Shown: positions 3,433 to 9,752 of the stretch, one piece after another | How the letters are laid out: every line of letters begins with the position of its first letter | How positions within the stretch are numbered: the first letter of the stretch is position 1 | Source: Promethearchaeota archaeon | GTDB taxonomy: Archaea > Asgardarchaeota > Lokiarchaeia > Sigyniarchaeales > SOKP01 | Reading direction: 5' to 3' | DNA length: 64,000 nt | Assembly (NCBI GenBank): GCA_016839555.1 | Contig: JAEOUA010000004.1 | Location: 23,894 to 87,893 of the forward strand | Notes under the pieces: generated by a model | What the model saw: the letters and a program-made list of their open reading frames with translations, nothing else | Database searches by the model: none | Told to the model about the DNA's origin: nothing | Made by a program: the position numbers and the translations under genes

Positions 3433-4068
3433 TTAAAATAATCCCTCCAGTGGATATTGAAATACAAGCACATTAAAATGGATGAGATCTAAAGAATAGG
3501 ACGCTGAAAAATAGACATCTATATAGAATTTAACTGTCGGATTAGTAACAGTAACAGGAGCAAAATTCGTTATATTATATTTCGCAATAAACGTTTGTTG
3601 AGGAGCTATTGCACCATATAACAATCCAAAAGGGATAAAACTTATATGAATGACACCTCTATCACCAACTCCTGTGCCATTAAACATAGTTATAGCTATT
3701 CCAAGTGTAAATTCACTTAAGTCAAAATATCCTGCATTTCTTATTTTAAAAGGTATTGAGATATATAAATCAGATAAATTCCCGGCAATAAGGGCATCAA
3801 CAATATTTTCCTCTATATCTATATTAAAAGGTAGACCATATTCTGTTAAATTTAAAATATAAGGAAATGCAATATTATTTCGATTATTTTGGGCACCTGC
3901 AGGATCAAAAGGATCTCCTATCCCTGTGATGGTTGTATCTTGTCCCCCCAGTATTTGAACCGCTGATAAACCTCCTAAAATTGAAACGGCTGACATGGAC
4001 AGTGTAAGAAATAGTACGAAAATTCTAACAATCCATCGAAAGATTCTCGATTTTCTAATTTTAATCAA
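3433..4068 (-). CDS. Hypothetical N-terminally anchored protein with a beta-rich exterior domain
   Basis: Basic N-terminus followed by one TM helix, then alternating beta-strand patterns and NxS/T sequons. Confidence 0.7.
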   Translation of the reverse strand: MIKIRKSRIFRWIVRIFVLFLTLSMSAVSILGGLSAVQILGGQDTTITGIGDPFDPAGAQNNRNNIAFPYILNLTEYGLPFNIDIEENIVDALIAGNLSDLYISIPFKIRNAGYFDLSEFTLGIAITMFNGTGVGDRGVIHISFIPFGLLYGAIAPQQTFIAKYNITNFAPVTVTNPTVKFYIDVYFSASYSLDLIHFNVLVFQYPLEGLF

Positions 4069-4248: not shown

Positions 4249-6177
4249 TTGTTGAATATGGGACATACTCTAACAGAAAAAATCATAACTAAGCATTTAC
4301 TTGAAGGAAAATTAATCAAAGGAGAAAATATAGGAATTAAAATAGATCAAACGCTTACTCAAGATGCAACGGGCACGCTGGCATATCTTCAATTCGAAAG
4401 TATGGGCGTATCTAAGGCAAAGACCGAGTTATCAGTGAGCTACGTAGATCATAATACATTACAAACAGATTATAGAAATGCGGATGATCATCGATATCTT
4501 AAAAGTATAGCTGCGAAATATGGACTATATTTTTCAAAACCTGGAAATGGGATTTGTCATCAACTTCATTTGGAACGATTTTCAATACCCGGAAAAACTC
4601 TATTAGGAAGTGATAGTCATACCCCAACTTGTGGAGGAATTGGAATGCTTGCTATTGGTGCGGGTGGTTTGGATGTTGCTGCAGCAATGGCAGGCGAACT
4701 TTTTTATTTTAAAATGCCTCAAATCATTAATATGCATTTAATCGGTGAACTTTCCAAATTTATTTCAGCTAAAGATATTATATTAGAAATATTGAAAAGA
4801 TTAGATGTTAAAGGCGCTGTAAATAGGATTTTAGAATATACAGGTCCCGGGATTAAGAGCTTATCAGTTCCAGAGCGAGCAACAATAACAAATATGGGAA
4901 CTGAAACAGGTGCTACAACCTCAATATTTCCTTCAGATGAAAATACAAAAAAGTTCCTATATGCTCAACAAAGAGTAAATGATTGGAAGGAATTAAAATC
5001 TGATGAAGATGCTACTTATGATGGAAAAATAGAGATGGAATTGAACGAGATTGAGCCTATGATTGCCTTACCTCATAGCCCAGGTAATGTAAAGCCTGTA
5101 AAGGAAGTTGAGGGGGTTCCTATTGATCAAATTTGCATAGGAAGTTGTACAAATTCCAGTTTAAGAGACTTGAAAATAGTCGCAAATATCTTTAAAAATC
5201 GAAAAATAAAAGATGATGTAAGTGTCACAATTTCTCCAGGTTCAAGACAAGTTGTGAACCATTTAATTAAATCTGGGGAGATGTCTTACTTGATAAAAGC
5301 AGGAGCAAGGATTTTAGAAAATGCATGCGGACCTTGTATAGGTATGGGGCAAGCCCCCTCCACCGATTCAGTTTCTCTACGAACCTTTAATAGAAATTTT
5401 ATCGGAAGATCCGGTACAAAAAGTGCGAGTGTTTATCTTGTAAGTCCCGAAACCGCAGCAGTTTCCGCTTTAATGGGAAAAATTACGGATCCTCGAACTT
5501 TCGATCATTCAATAGAAATTACTATGCCAGAAAAATTTATTATTAATGATAATATGATTGTTCCCCCTTCAAGCACTCCTGAAAAAGTTAAAATAATTCG
5601 TGGTCCAAATATAAAACCCTTACCTTCTTTTCCTCCATTAAAAGATAAATTAAAGGGGGAAATCCTGCTTAAAGTGGGCGATAATATTACTACTGATCAT
5701 ATTATGCCTGCTGGGGCTAAAATTTTACCATTGAGGAGTAATATTCCAGCGATTAGTGAGTATGTATTTAATATTATTGATTCGAGTTTTTCAAATCGAG
5801 CCTTAAATAGAAACGGGGGATTTATTGTTGGGGGAGATAATTACGGTCAAGGATCAAGTCGAGAGCATGCCGCTATAGCTCCTAAATATTTAGGAATTAA
5901 AGCTATTATCGCAAAATCCTTTGCTCGCATCCATTTAGATAATTTAATTAATTTCGGAATTGTCCCACTTACATTTAACAATCTAAAAGATTATCAATCC
6001 CTTGATCAAGGTGATATTATAGAAATTGATTTAACTTCGTTAGAATTGGATAAAGTTGTAATTCATAACCTTACTAAAAATAATAAAATAACAACAAAAC
6101 ATAACTTAGATAAAAGATCCCTTCAAATTCTTAAAGTAGGGGGAAAATTACCCTATATTAGACAAAAACAAAATTAA
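4249..6177 (+). CDS. Aconitate hydratase (short, about 640-aa single-chain type)
   Basis: QDATG, DHN, GSDSHT, IGSCTNSS, CGPCIGMG, TTDHIMPAG and YGQGSSREHA motifs. Alternative ATG at 4258. Confidence 0.93.
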   Translation: MLNMGHTLTEKIITKHLLEGKLIKGENIGIKIDQTLTQDATGTLAYLQFESMGVSKAKTELSVSYVDHNTLQTDYRNADDHRYLKSIAAKYGLYFSKPGNGICHQLHLERFSIPGKTLLGSDSHTPTCGGIGMLAIGAGGLDVAAAMAGELFYFKMPQIINMHLIGELSKFISAKDIILEILKRLDVKGAVNRILEYTGPGIKSLSVPERATITNMGTETGATTSIFPSDENTKKFLYAQQRVNDWKELKSDEDATYDGKIEMELNEIEPMIALPHSPGNVKPVKEVEGVPIDQICIGSCTNSSLRDLKIVANIFKNRKIKDDVSVTISPGSRQVVNHLIKSGEMSYLIKAGARILENACGPCIGMGQAPSTDSVSLRTFNRNFIGRSGTKSASVYLVSPETAAVSALMGKITDPRTFDHSIEITMPEKFIINDNMIVPPSSTPEKVKIIRGPNIKPLPSFPPLKDKLKGEILLKVGDNITTDHIMPAGAKILPLRSNIPAISEYVFNIIDSSFSNRALNRNGGFIVGGDNYGQGSSREHAAIAPKYLGIKAIIAKSFARIHLDNLINFGIVPLTFNNLKDYQSLDQGDIIEIDLTSLELDKVVIHNLTKNNKITTKHNLDKRSLQILKVGGKLPYIRQKQN

Positions 6178-6296
6178 AAATAAACTATTTAATTTTGAAG
6201 ATTTTAATAGTTTAAAAATAGTGAAGTGTAAAATATTTAAAAAAAGATTATTTTTTTAATTTTTTATTTTTATTGGTCACACTCACGCAGAGTGAA

Positions 6297-6331
6297 TCCC
6301 CAATCTTCTACCATTTATAAGATTGAGTCAT
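6297..6331 (-). promoter_or_regulatory. Eukaryote-type SECIS element in the 3' UTR
   Basis: Minus strand reads AUGA-CUCAAUCUU-AUAAAUGGUAG-AAGAUUGGG-GA: AUGA/GA core, 9-bp stem (8 Watson-Crick pairs plus 1 G-U), apical AAA. It lies 4 nt after the TAA of a gene carrying an in-frame TGA. Confidence 0.85.
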
Positions 6332-6335
6332 TTTT

Positions 6336-6707
6336 TTACCCATACACATCCGATTCTTTTTTTATAAATAACATGCCAACTGTTTTTCCTTTGACTTCAC
6401 CGAGTGCTGCATCGATAAGCATTGTAGGCTTTTCTTCGAATTCAGATACTAATGGGTTTTCAATATAGACTTCGACATCATAATCTTCATTAAATTCATC
6501 CCATTTAACGAAGCCTTTTTTATCTTTGAGAACCTTATGTTTTTGGACAAGTTCTACCACATTTCCGCAAAATGCCATTGTTCATGTTTCAGATGAATAG
6601 AAAAAAATTGCAAGTATTAGTTCAGAGGAGTTATTTTGTTTTTTTTTAGTTTCTTTTTGTTCTTTAATATAATTCAGTGCTTTATTTGATATTGTTATCT
6701 TAAAAAA
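6336..6707 (-). CDS. Predicted selenoprotein, HesB-like / CC-Se-motif-like, about 120-123 aa (extends the 6336-6578 ORF; exact start uncertain)
   Basis: The frame is open from 6707 except for one TGA at 6582-6584: (FF)KITISNKALNYIKEQKETKKKQNNSSELILAIFFYSSET-U-TMAFCGNVVELV...DVEVYIENPLV. SECIS downstream; GGTGA SD at 6711-6715. Confidence 0.78.
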
Positions 6708-6830
6708 TTATCACCACTTTCTATATTTTATATGCAACAATCTTTTAAAAATTTAAAATATTTATATAATTGTTTTAAAAACTTTTTTTGTATAATATGA
6801 AAAAAAATTTGTAAAAATATCGACTAAAAT

Positions 6831-9752
6831 ATGACACAAGAAGAATTACAAGTACATAATTTAGAAGTAGAGAAAGTGGCTGACGAATTAAAGACATCCA
6901 TAGATATAGGCCTTACTGAGGAGGAAGCTGAAAGGCGTCTTGAGCAATATGGATTAAATGAAATACAAAAAACTGGGGGAGTGTCTCCTATACAAATATT
7001 CATTAATCAATTTAAAGATTTCTTAGTTTATTTATTGTTTTTTGCCATAGGAATTTCTATCGTTGTTGGATTTTATGAATTATCGATTGGCGGTGATCCA
7101 TCTGAATTTTTAGATGCTATCGTGATATTTATTATCCTCGTTGCAAATGCCATTTTAGGTTTTTATCAGGAATACAAAGCGGAAAAGGCTATTGAGAGTC
7201 TGAGAGAGATGGCTCCACATTTTGCCGTTGTAATACGTGATGGAAAAACCAAACAAATTGATGTCAAAGGGGTTGTACCAGGAGATATCTTGAAGCTTGA
7301 TGAGGGAGATAAAATTCCCGCAGACGCTCGGCTATTTGAAAATTATTCATTATATGTGGATGAGGCAATCCTCACCGGTGAATCTCAACCAGTTGAAAAA
7401 GATTTAAACCTATATGACGTAAAGACCATGTTAGCAGATAGGAAAAATATGGTATTTAGTAATACAGTCATTACTCGTGGAAATGCAAAAGCTATTGCGG
7501 TAAGAACGGCTATGAAAACAGAGGTTGGTAAAATAGCTGAAAAAATACAAGAGGAAGAACCGGAAAAAACTCCCTTTCAAAAAGAGGTTGATCGTTTTGG
7601 AAAACAAATAGGAATTATAACTTTGATTGTATGCGCCATGGTATTCGTAATAGAGTTGGTAATAATTATTGCAACAGAAGGATTCGGATTTGAAAAAGCT
7701 GAAATCGAAGAAATAATAGAGGCTTTAACAATTGCGATAAGTTTAGCTGTATCGGCTGTACCAGAAGGATTGGTAGTTGTAATTACGGTTGTAATGAGTA
7801 TCGGAATGCGAAAAATGGCGGAACGAGACGCCTTAGTTAAAACTTTAACAGCTGTGGAAACCTTGGGGAGAGTGAACATCATTTGTTCTGATAAAACTGG
7901 AACTCTCACCAAAAACGAAATGACGGTTAAAAAAGTATATCTTGGAGGAGAGGAATATGATGTGGATGGTGTTGGTTATATTCTTGAAGGGAAAATACTG
8001 GATAATTCTGGGAATCCAATTCAACTTGATGATAACAAAAATTTAAAAAGATACTTGGAAGTGTGTAAATTTTGTAATAACTCAACAGTTTCACCTAAAG
8101 ATGATAACCCAGTAAAGACTAATGTTATTGGAGATCCTACAGAAATCTCTTTAAAAGTTCTCGCAATGAAAATGAATCTCGATACGGAATCTAAAAAACT
8201 TGATGAGATACCATTTAGTTCTGACAGAAAAATGATGTCGGTTGTTGTAAAAATGAATGGAGAACTTTATTCTCTCATTAAAGGAGCTCCTGATGTGATC
8301 ATGAAAAAGGCGGGAAAAGCATTATATAATGGAGAAATAAAACCAATTGATGAAGTCAGAGATATATATCTTTCAAAAAATAACGAATTTGCTGAGAATG
8401 CATTAAGAGTCCTAGGGATTGCCTACAAGCCTCTAAATGAAGGATTTAATAAGGATGAAATTGAACAAGATTTTACCTATCTTGGATTAGCAGGAATTAT
8501 AGATCCCGCGAGGGATGAAGTAAAAGACTCAATAGAAGAAGCAAGAATGGCTGGTATTAGAACTATTATGATAACAGGCGATCATAAAATTACCGCTATT
8601 GCCATAGCAAAACAAATCGGATTAACTGACATAGACGACGCGATTACTGGTGCTGAAATGGAAGAGATGTCTGATGAGACATTAAATGAGCGAGTTGAAG
8701 AAGTAGATGTGTTTGCAAGAGTAACATCTGGGCACAAACTTAGAATTCTTAAAGCCTTGAAATCAAAAGAATATGTTGTTTCCATGACAGGTGATGGAGT
8801 AAATGATGCTCCAGCAGTGAAAGGGGCAAATGTAGGCGTGGCAATGGGGATAAAAGGAACGGAAGTAACTCGCGAAGCTTCCGATATGATCCTATTGGAC
8901 GATGATTATTCAACAATCGTAGATGCTATTGAAGAGGGTCGCGGAATTTTTGAAACTACAAAGGGTTTTTTCAGGTATATGCTTGCTGCAAATTTTGATG
9001 AAATATTTATGATCTTAACGGCATATATTTTGATGAAAGTCGCAGTGAATATCTATTTAGCACCACCTATACAAGCTATTCAGATATTATGGTTAAACAT
9101 CGCCACAGATGGTATTCCAGCAATGGTTCTTGGATTAACTCCAACAGATCCGGATGTTATGAAACTTAAACCGCGAAAAGGATTTAATATGATACATGAT
9201 ATTAGAAATGCGATAATTTTCGCAGCAGTTTTTGCTGCAATCACCGATGTTTTATTATATATAATTTGTTGGGGAGTCCTTATTCCCGCATGGTCTACTC
9301 CAGGAGGGCTTGTATTTGATCCGCGCTTACAAAATTATCACATAATAGAAACTTCAATTCTAGGAGTTAAAATAGATCTTGGAACTGATGCCTATGAATA
9401 TGCTATAGCTGTCGCTCAGAGCATCGTCTTTACAAATGTGGTATTTTTTGAATTATTTTTTGTCTTTTCATGCACTTCCGAGTGGAAACCTTTATGGGAA
9501 TTTCCCAACAAACATCTATTCTGGGCAACAGGGATTTCATTTGTATTACATCTATTGATTCTCTTCACACCGCTAAACATTGCCTTCCATGCCGTACCGA
9601 TGGACAGGTGGTACCATTGGGTAGCCATATTTCTAGGATCCATTGGAATTGTTCCCGCAGAGGAATTCAGAAAATATCTCATTCGTCGCAGACAGCATAA
9701 ATCAAAAAGATATCAACGACGATTAAGCAGTTATCATAGAAATAACAACTAA
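6831..9752 (+). CDS. Cation-transporting P-type ATPase, type IIA (Ca2+, SERCA-like)
   Basis: TGES, VPEGL, CSDKTGTLT phosphorylation site, KGAP, MITGD, TGDGVNDAPA, LWLNIATDG. Confidence 0.95.
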   Translation: MTQEELQVHNLEVEKVADELKTSIDIGLTEEEAERRLEQYGLNEIQKTGGVSPIQIFINQFKDFLVYLLFFAIGISIVVGFYELSIGGDPSEFLDAIVIFIILVANAILGFYQEYKAEKAIESLREMAPHFAVVIRDGKTKQIDVKGVVPGDILKLDEGDKIPADARLFENYSLYVDEAILTGESQPVEKDLNLYDVKTMLADRKNMVFSNTVITRGNAKAIAVRTAMKTEVGKIAEKIQEEEPEKTPFQKEVDRFGKQIGIITLIVCAMVFVIELVIIIATEGFGFEKAEIEEIIEALTIAISLAVSAVPEGLVVVITVVMSIGMRKMAERDALVKTLTAVETLGRVNIICSDKTGTLTKNEMTVKKVYLGGEEYDVDGVGYILEGKILDNSGNPIQLDDNKNLKRYLEVCKFCNNSTVSPKDDNPVKTNVIGDPTEISLKVLAMKMNLDTESKKLDEIPFSSDRKMMSVVVKMNGELYSLIKGAPDVIMKKAGKALYNGEIKPIDEVRDIYLSKNNEFAENALRVLGIAYKPLNEGFNKDEIEQDFTYLGLAGIIDPARDEVKDSIEEARMAGIRTIMITGDHKITAIAIAKQIGLTDIDDAITGAEMEEMSDETLNERVEEVDVFARVTSGHKLRILKALKSKEYVVSMTGDGVNDAPAVKGANVGVAMGIKGTEVTREASDMILLDDDYSTIVDAIEEGRGIFETTKGFFRYMLAANFDEIFMILTAYILMKVAVNIYLAPPIQAIQILWLNIATDGIPAMVLGLTPTDPDVMKLKPRKGFNMIHDIRNAIIFAAVFAAITDVLLYIICWGVLIPAWSTPGGLVFDPRLQNYHIIETSILGVKIDLGTDAYEYAIAVAQSIVFTNVVFFELFFVFSCTSEWKPLWEFPNKHLFWATGISFVLHLLILFTPLNIAFHAVPMDRWYHWVAIFLGSIGIVPAEEFRKYLIRRRQHKSKRYQRRLSSYHRNNN

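Follow-up and report, generated by a model that had tools for sequence, protein, structure and literature searches.

A probable selenoprotein family of Lokiarchaeia with an in-frame UGA, a type I lokiSECIS element and a predicted IscA/HesB-like fold

The DNA analysed here, referred to as the window, is a stretch of 64,000 nucleotides from a Promethearchaeota archaeon of the class Lokiarchaeia (GenBank assembly GCA_016839555.1, contig JAEOUA010000004.1, positions 23,894 to 87,893 of the forward strand). On its minus strand lies a reading frame that runs from 6707 to 6336 and whose sole interruption is the TGA at 6584-6582. An original prediction, made from the sequence of the window, had proposed that this frame is a hidden selenoprotein gene in which the TGA encodes selenocysteine (Sec). 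Its coordinates were borne out: 41 sense codons (6707-6585) stand in frame ahead of the TGA and precede an open reading frame (ORF) of 80 amino acids (6578-6336), which is the only part that a gene-style ORF listing reports. Upstream, the extension is bounded by a TGA (6713-6711) and a TAA (6710-6708), and 6707 begins the first codon after this TAA. The Sec site of the window protein reads ...SSET-U-TMAFC.... The gene and its signals comprise the following features.

6336..6707, minus strand: read-through coding sequence of the proposed selenoprotein, with 123 codons counted tentatively from 6707 and the stop TAA at 6338-6336
6582..6584, minus strand: UGA codon proposed to encode selenocysteine (U42), context ACA-TGA-ACA-ATG
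6567..6569, minus strand: TGC codon of Cys47, the partner in the U-x4-C site; invariant column
6711..6715, minus strand: GGTGA, a Shine-Dalgarno-like motif, 6 nt ahead of the conserved TTT-AAR (Phe-Lys) codons
6295..6331, minus strand: type I lokiSECIS, with AUGA at 6331-6328, a 9-bp stem (6327-6319/6307-6299), the 11-nt loop AUAAAUGGUAG at 6318-6308 and GA-UU at 6298-6295
6280..6294, minus strand: a second, small and G+C-rich hairpin (CACUC-UGCGU-GAGUG) that adjoins the lokiSECIS on its 3' side

Very probably, this is a genuine selenoprotein gene, in which UGA42 is read as Sec by means of the lokiSECIS (a selenocysteine insertion sequence, SECIS, of the Lokiarchaeota type) and which encodes an IscA-like protein with a reactive Sec42. 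The proposal of a hidden selenoprotein is upheld by a conserved TGA, by a Cys paralogue, by the SECIS and by the presence of a Sec machinery. More than 40 homologues from one Asgard family of the Genome Taxonomy Database (GTDB) span the whole 123 residues, and each has a TGA at the identical column. When related genomes were searched in six frames with the read-through protein, matches over residues 2-123 came from 14 of the 24 genomes taken from the same GTDB family, every match of this first search containing one TGA; 16 genomes of three sister families gave no match. Extended to 301 genomes across the phylum, the search detected the family in 24 of the 68 genomes belonging to the same GTDB family and yielded just one marginal match outside it. 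The translations of the homologues place the TGA always in the context ...S-S-x-T-U-T-M-x-F-C-G-N..., they share the N-terminal pattern F-K-x-x-x-S-x-x-A-L-x-Y-I-x-E-Q, and an alignment of 18 sequences shows a C-terminal tail of the form ...KKxxNVYG. Just four columns of this alignment are invariant; U42 and C47 are two of these, and the U-x4-C site named in the original prediction is present in all 18 sequences. When the window gene is compared with its closest orthologue (L006), the ratio of non-synonymous to synonymous substitution rates (dN/dS) amounts to 0.25 upstream and 0.12 downstream of the TGA, and third codon positions are the most variable ones in both parts. The extension upstream of the TGA is therefore coding. 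The TGA column, which holds Cys in the paralogues described below, and its flanks on both sides are conserved in every strong homologue, far beyond chance. The TGA region also recurs with zero differences in two short, partial contigs, one of which comes from a different sample of the source study and the other from a second study. Two copies of the family (L008, G016:C60:21683-22045; and G117:C29:5294-5641) are interrupted by a further TAA in frame, either close to the C-terminus or in addition to the TGA, and may represent pseudogenes or result from assembly errors.

An alternative would be that the TGA is a true stop, that the gene is the 80-residue ORF starting at Met44 and that the 41 codons upstream are a separate small ORF or a non-coding leader. 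This would agree with the public gene calls, which give 'hypothetical proteins' of 80 and about 41 amino acids, and with the ATG that lies two codons past the TGA. However, the GGTGA motif at 6715-6711 precedes the extension and not the internal ATG, as had been noted at the outset, and both conservation and purifying selection continue across the TGA. Homologues beginning at the internal Met, with no conservation upstream, were not what the search returned, since the matches span residues 2-123, and the Met44 column itself is not conserved: in the 18-sequence alignment, other members have Ile, Leu, Thr, Ser or Gly at this position. Furthermore, paralogues carry Cys at the TGA column, the SECIS strictly co-occurs with the TGA, and the predicted fold requires the beta1-alpha1-beta2 unit that the extension supplies. 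A true stop at this position is very improbable.

An exhaustive profile search of 1.8 billion representative sequences returned 70 matches. Many of these are fragments, either the 80-residue C-terminal or the roughly 41-residue N-terminal part, deposited as 'hypothetical protein' in JGI/IMG and NCBI, which confirms the suspicion that gene callers truncate the gene; the NCBI fragment entry comes from a metagenome-assembled genome of a Promethearchaeota archaeon. Full-length database entries carry W at the U column, and the sole one checked (P0001) is a TGA translated as Trp. True Cys homologues read ...S-K-Q-A-C-A-G-S-Y..., one of them verified under translation table 11. Cys at the Sec column was found in P0028, P0029, P0038 and P0039 and in tandem paralogues at two loci (L051, L052). 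In two genomes, a tandem cluster has the order A(Sec)-C(Cys)-B(Sec); here, a SECIS follows both TGA genes, whereas the Cys gene starts with ATG and is devoid of a SECIS. Such side-by-side Sec and Cys paralogues with and without a SECIS constitute a clean natural control for SECIS function. The Cys paralogue has TGY at the Sec column and possesses a single Cys, with no equivalent of Cys47. The site of subfamily B reads U-S-G-x-F-C, and that of the window protein U-T-M-A-F-C. Subfamilies B and C retain the (U/C)-(S/A)-G-x-(F/Y) pattern of IscA/SufA, and Asgard proteins of the PF01521 family read G-G-C-A-G-F-S-Y.

These comparisons also bear on the idea that UGA is an ordinary sense codon for Trp, Cys or Gly, either through a changed genetic code or through SECIS-independent read-through. 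Some annotation pipelines did use TGA as Trp, and TGA closes just 2 of the 40 long frames in the window. The scarcity of TGA stops, however, fits a genome of 29% G+C, and two family loci (L006 and L014) use TGA as the end of a frame. Each family gene contains exactly one TGA, which lies at an invariant column that is occupied by Cys in the paralogues, and both a Sec pathway and a canonical SECIS are present. Reassignment of UGA is scarcely credible and is the least probable of the explanations considered.

As predicted, the gene has its own 3' SECIS of the eukaryote-like Loki type: an AUGA with a hairpin behind it begins at 6331, at a distance of 253 nt downstream of the UGA (about 250 nt had been expected). 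It begins 4 nt past the stop TAA, after AAAA. Published lokiSECIS elements are defined by an AUGA placed directly 5' of a 9-bp stem, which carries an 11-nt loop whose first five bases are A-rich (PMC4989117). In addition, the last loop base is G, mostly following A, a GA stands 3' of the stem, and the element lies close to the stop codon (PMC4989117). The window element shows all five published features, with the GA directly 3' of the stem at 6298-6297. Among the family elements, AUGA is kept in 17 of 19, the remaining two having GUGA and ACGA, and loop positions A26-A28 and G34 are invariant. Across the 19 family members, 94% of the stem positions are paired and compensatory changes occur in 7 of the 9 pairs; none of 500 shuffled controls was as good, and slid controls were less than 50% paired. 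A covariance model yielded 12 further matches, of which 11 lie behind family genes; their stems are 95% paired and show double changes in 9 of 9 pairs. This model (R1) found the element behind 10 Sec-type family genes outside the training set as well as behind one training sequence (L053 = L018), and it found none behind the Cys homologues. Applied to the organism's own genome at E<=1, with 150 of 5167 candidates scored, it retrieves just the window element, the model being family-specific.

A strict structural SECIS pattern has nine matches in the whole 3.74-Mb genome: the window element, one VhuU-like, four VhuD-like and one Prx-like gene, one further ORF of unknown kind with two adjacent TGAs and one likely false match. 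The VhuU-like ORF reads D-C-U-L-S-C and the Prx-like one W-U-H-A-U, and the four VhuD-like ORFs carry two Sec each. Because the published features, the covariation and the genome-wide matches agree, the window SECIS is of the same class as the signals of this organism's known selenoprotein genes. It shares the kind of RNA signal and its placement just past the stop with the lokiSECIS genes VhuD, VhuU and PrxL described for Lokiarchaeota (PMC4989117); the window protein, however, belongs to a family unrelated to theirs. RNAfold predicts both the SECIS and the second small hairpin. The latter is kept across the HesB-like family with compensatory changes, and similar hairpins lie 3' of other selenoprotein SECIS elements (C6:314148, C10:423555, C10:212455, C12:203634 and C12:252536 of the window's genome, G000, and the SelD 3' untranslated region at L028). 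This second hairpin is not part of the published lokiSECIS description (PMC4989117); it may act as a terminator, a third helix or a protein-binding site.

A machinery for Sec synthesis and insertion, which the original prediction had expected in the genome, is clear for SepSecS, SelD and tRNA-Sec, but the EFSec and PSTK candidates stay below the curated cut-offs. SepSecS scores 494 bits, above its cut-off. The tRNA-Sec, detected by Rfam, comprises 88 nt with a UCA anticodon, reaches 45.3 bits (cut-off 47) and adjoins SepSecS directly upstream; ARAGORN reports no tRNA at this locus, though Rfam detects one. The EFSec candidate has 237 bits (cut-off 242) and lies about 6 kb from SepSecS/tRNA-Sec, and the PSTK candidate was found with an E-value of 7e-47. 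SelD is above its cut-off and has an in-frame TGA of its own (...H-G-U-S-C-K...) together with a type II SECIS. SepSecS, tRNA-Sec and the EFSec candidate are clustered at G000:C5:400755-408710.

The start of the gene is more complicated. The GGTGA Shine-Dalgarno motif is in place as predicted, but a canonical start codon is absent in the window copy: the extension (6707-6585) has no ATG, GTG or TTG between the TAA at 6710-6708 and the TGA. The nearest codon permitted by table 11 is an ATA at 6698-6696. In most orthologues, GGTGA or GGTGG stands a few nucleotides ahead of the conserved TTT-AAR codons. Of the roughly 21 genes of subfamily A, about half carry TTG or ATG directly ahead of the Phe codon and two carry CTG; in about 7, the window gene included, this codon is TTT, TAG, AAT, TCG or GAA. 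At precisely the position of the TTT in the window, seven loci (L007, L014, L017, L018, L032, L051 and L052) carry TTG; six orthologues (L006, L010, L011, L015, L019 and L036) have no ATG, GTG or TTG near the start defined by the Shine-Dalgarno motif. A homopolymer indel error was considered as the cause of the missing start and ruled out, as the 6-nt spacing from GGTGA to TTT-AAR is the same as in the TTG orthologues. With this spacing conserved, the difference in the window is due to a substitution. The subfamily-A genes that are devoid of a canonical start remain under purifying selection, and a non-canonical initiation in this lineage is possible, judging from the sequences.

It could also be that the family is real but that the window copy is silent or decaying because its TTG start changed to TTT, which stands two codons behind a TAA. 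This is suggested by the extension without a canonical start, by the TTG of the seven loci named above and by the extra in-frame TAA in the L008 and G117 copies. On the other hand, the ORF, the U-x4-C site, the Shine-Dalgarno motif and the SECIS of the window copy are all intact, and the dN/dS values of 0.12-0.25 were obtained against L006, which itself has no canonical start. Genes of this kind account for about a third of subfamily A and come from different genera, too many for independent recent deaths, and a second selenoprotein candidate of the same genome, described at the end, likewise has no ATG, GTG or TTG after its Shine-Dalgarno motif. A silent window copy is unlikely.

For the read-through protein, AlphaFold2 gave a confident model from the family alignment with a predicted local distance difference test (pLDDT) score of 86.7 and a predicted template modelling (pTM) score of 0.78, in which strand 1, helix 1 and strand 2 are formed by the N-terminal extension. 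The top seven structures found by VIA-align are all of the IscA, SufA, DsrR or HesB type; the best is 1r94 (Z 8.2, root-mean-square deviation 3.4, 96/97 residues), followed by 2d2a (Z 7.8) and 2k4z (DsrR, Z 6.7) among others, and the next unrelated fold has Z 3.1. Foldseek also retrieved 1r94 (E 4e-4). An IscA/HesB-like fold across the whole domain is thus supported by the model. The earlier assignment to the HesB fold holds in so far as the AlphaFold model, Foldseek and VIA-align agree, but the cut-offs of the curated HesB hidden Markov models (HMMs) are missed. Searches of Pfam and NCBIfam gave nothing significant for the window protein. PF01521 matches its residues 3-38 with 12.7 bits (E 0.16; gathering cut-off 26.3 bits), and its best relative reaches 19.4 bits, also below the cut-off; for Cys paralogues, the sub-threshold E-value is 1.3e-3. 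TIGR01911 (curated cut-off 66.35 bits) has no match to the window protein at E<=10; the best score in the family is 22.1 bits, a Cys paralogue matches with E 1.8e-4 and one Sec member with 2.6e-3, and a search of 25 genomes, including carriers of the window family, found no match. The best scores for NF041239 (CC/Se motif) and NF038090 (IscA_HesB_Se) are 16.1 and 15 bits (cut-offs 40 and 85), both for the Cys paralogue P0028; the sub-threshold E-values for Cys paralogues are 0.009 and 0.023, respectively. All of these weak profile matches point at the HesB superfamily. A family profile compared with 11 Asgard PF01521 proteins by hhalign gave a probability of 6%, and the weak alignment sets U42 on the loop Cys. 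A search of PDB sequences with the family profile gave no meaningful match. A Pfam match to TIR (E 0.008) was discarded as spurious, just 2 of 18 members showing it.

The C-terminal Cys-x-Cys is absent from every aligned family member, and the three Cys residues characteristic of PF01521 are accordingly not found. By fold and by the weak profile matches, the family is a divergent relative of the HesB-like selenoproteins; it is not filed as a member of those families because the curated cut-offs are missed and the C-terminal Cys-x-Cys is lacking. With the HesB-like selenoproteins of Methanococcales and bacteria (TIGR01911), the window protein shares the small single domain, the HesB/IscA superfamily and a single Sec located in the loop that follows the second strand. 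The known motif of that family is UxGP, and not of the 'GCUG' type as the original prediction had assumed (PMC13188914). UxGP does not occur at the Sec site of the window protein, and the window family has U-x4-C instead (PMC13188914). It further differs from TIGR01911 in its SECIS, which is of the Loki/eukaryote-like and not of the euryarchaeal GAA_A type, and in its confinement to one Asgard family. The A-type carriers IscA, SufA and ErpA (PF01521) resemble it in the predicted fold, in the 'I.I...A...I' start of the N-terminal helix and in a reactive chalcogen residue placed at the position of Cys35; in contrast to them, the window family has no C-terminal Cys-x-Cys, Sec in place of Cys and an extra Cys at +5. 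DsrR, encoded in the dsr cluster (PDB 2k4z), is another protein of IscA-like fold in which the three canonical Cys are lacking. DsrR is not known to carry Cys or Sec at the loop position, and in contrast to DsrR no dsr genes lie near the window selenoprotein gene.

According to the proposed mechanism, translation would begin at or just past 6707 from a codon other than ATG, GTG or TTG, and the SECIS would recruit a complex of EFSec and Sec-tRNA, so that UGA42 is read as selenocysteine and a product of about 120-123 residues is made. The product is predicted to adopt the alpha/beta fold of the A-type Fe-S carriers (IscA, SufA, HesB), and Sec42 would sit in the flexible beta2-beta3 loop, where these carriers have their first invariant Cys, with Cys47 five residues further on. 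Sec42 would be the reactive centre, its selenolate carrying or ligating sulfur, selenium, iron or an Fe-S species; as an alternative chemistry, the protein might cycle via a Sec42-Cys47 selenenylsulfide. As Cys47 is limited to the Sec forms, the sequences suggest that it has a resolving or protecting role through such a selenenylsulfide. Such a protein would act as a small redox or chalcogen/metal relay. The role of a classical three-Cys cluster carrier appears less likely, given that the remaining ligands are lacking and that just one Cys occurs in the Cys paralogue.

Several points weigh against this interpretation. The window copy may be poorly translated or untranslated, as it is without a canonical start. 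The Sec/Cys loop is the least confident region of the model, with a pLDDT of about 68 for residues 41-50. The homology to HesB is not significant at the sequence level, as the hhalign probability and the missed curated cut-offs show, and the position of Sec relative to Cys35 of IscA is derived from the weak hhalign alignment and from topology. For EFSec, PSTK and tRNA-Sec, the scores stay under, or just under, the curated cut-offs, the models in question having been derived from other lineages.

The gene is flanked by a divergent and a convergent gene, and further predicted membrane proteins are encoded nearby.

6831..9752, plus strand: P2-type (PMR1/SERCA-like) cation ATPase, divergent; Pfam and NCBIfam matches
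4249..6177, plus strand: aconitate hydratase (4Fe-4S enzyme), convergent; NF005558, 965.9 bits
2867-3412 and 3433-4068, minus strand: predicted membrane proteins, uncharacterised; no Pfam or NCBIfam match

The convergence with an Fe-S aconitase had been pointed out in the original prediction and was found as described. Both are recurrent neighbours: among related loci, the ATPase adjoins the family gene in about 15, and for the aconitase the number is about 11. Every one of these loci belongs to a single taxonomic family, so that the arrangement may simply be inherited. One of the two membrane proteins has an N-terminal anchor and the other about three transmembrane segments. Homologues of these proteins are encoded directly downstream of the selenoprotein gene at five loci (L008, L012, L015, L020 and L036); in the window, the aconitase gene separates them from it.

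A-type carriers are required for aconitase-type 4Fe-4S enzymes in bacteria and mitochondria. The window protein might accordingly be imagined as a true A-type Fe-S or iron carrier, a dimer of which holds a cluster via Sec42 and Cys47 of its two subunits, replaces the IscA/SufA missing from this lineage and serves the neighbouring aconitase. The predicted IscA-like fold and the adjacent aconitase would be in line with this, as would the finding that no PF01521 protein was detected in this genome (92% complete) and that such a protein is present in just 3 of the 81 genomes sampled from the phylum. However, the family lacks the C-terminal Cys-x-Cys ligands, its Cys-type paralogue contains just one Cys, and the aconitase gene runs convergently and is not co-transcribed. 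Moreover, the synteny may be inherited, and in other loci the two membrane-protein genes take the place of aconitase. The role of a true carrier is doubtful, and the preferred reading of Sec42 as the centre of a small relay is retained.

The Asgard selenoproteome has so far been catalogued just through homology to known families. A survey of 2024 covered more than 400 Asgard genomes in this way (PMC11227280) and lists seven families, namely SelD, FrhA/VhuU, HdrA, FrhD/VhuD, Prx-like, AhpF-N and DsbA-like, none of which is HesB-like (PMC11227280). A review of 2026 describes the HesB-like family (TIGR01911, UxGP) as archaeal and does not name it among the Asgard families (PMC13188914). No paper joining selenoprotein, Asgard and IscA was found in the literature searched, within which the family is unreported; the suggestion of an undescribed Asgard selenoprotein family is in keeping with its absence from both lists. 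De novo evidence consisting of a conserved TGA, Sec/Cys pairs and a lokiSECIS uncovers here a family that curated HMMs missed and whose gene is split by gene callers into two 'hypothetical proteins'. It adds a HesB-fold member with a new U-x4-C site. Going further, one might speculate that the family is the Lokiarchaeial stand-in for A-type carriers, a Se-ligated Fe or Fe-S relay for aconitase, that it is one of at least two families missed by homology-based Asgard surveys, the other being the 'CUU' family on contig C7, and that its translation starts at a codon other than AUG, GUG or UUG; this combination as a whole is a long shot.

A second, apparently undescribed candidate lies outside the window at G000:C7:6067-6537 on the plus strand (locus L055:668-1141). 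Its ORF of 157 amino acids contains two adjacent in-frame TGAs (...D-A-G-C-U-U-D-K-F...), is followed by a lokiSECIS 4 nt past the stop and matches no Pfam family. After its Shine-Dalgarno motif AGGAGTGA, no ATG, GTG or TTG occurs, and the first candidate start is ATC. Both TGAs are kept in homologues from 15 of 25 related genomes, including two sister families.

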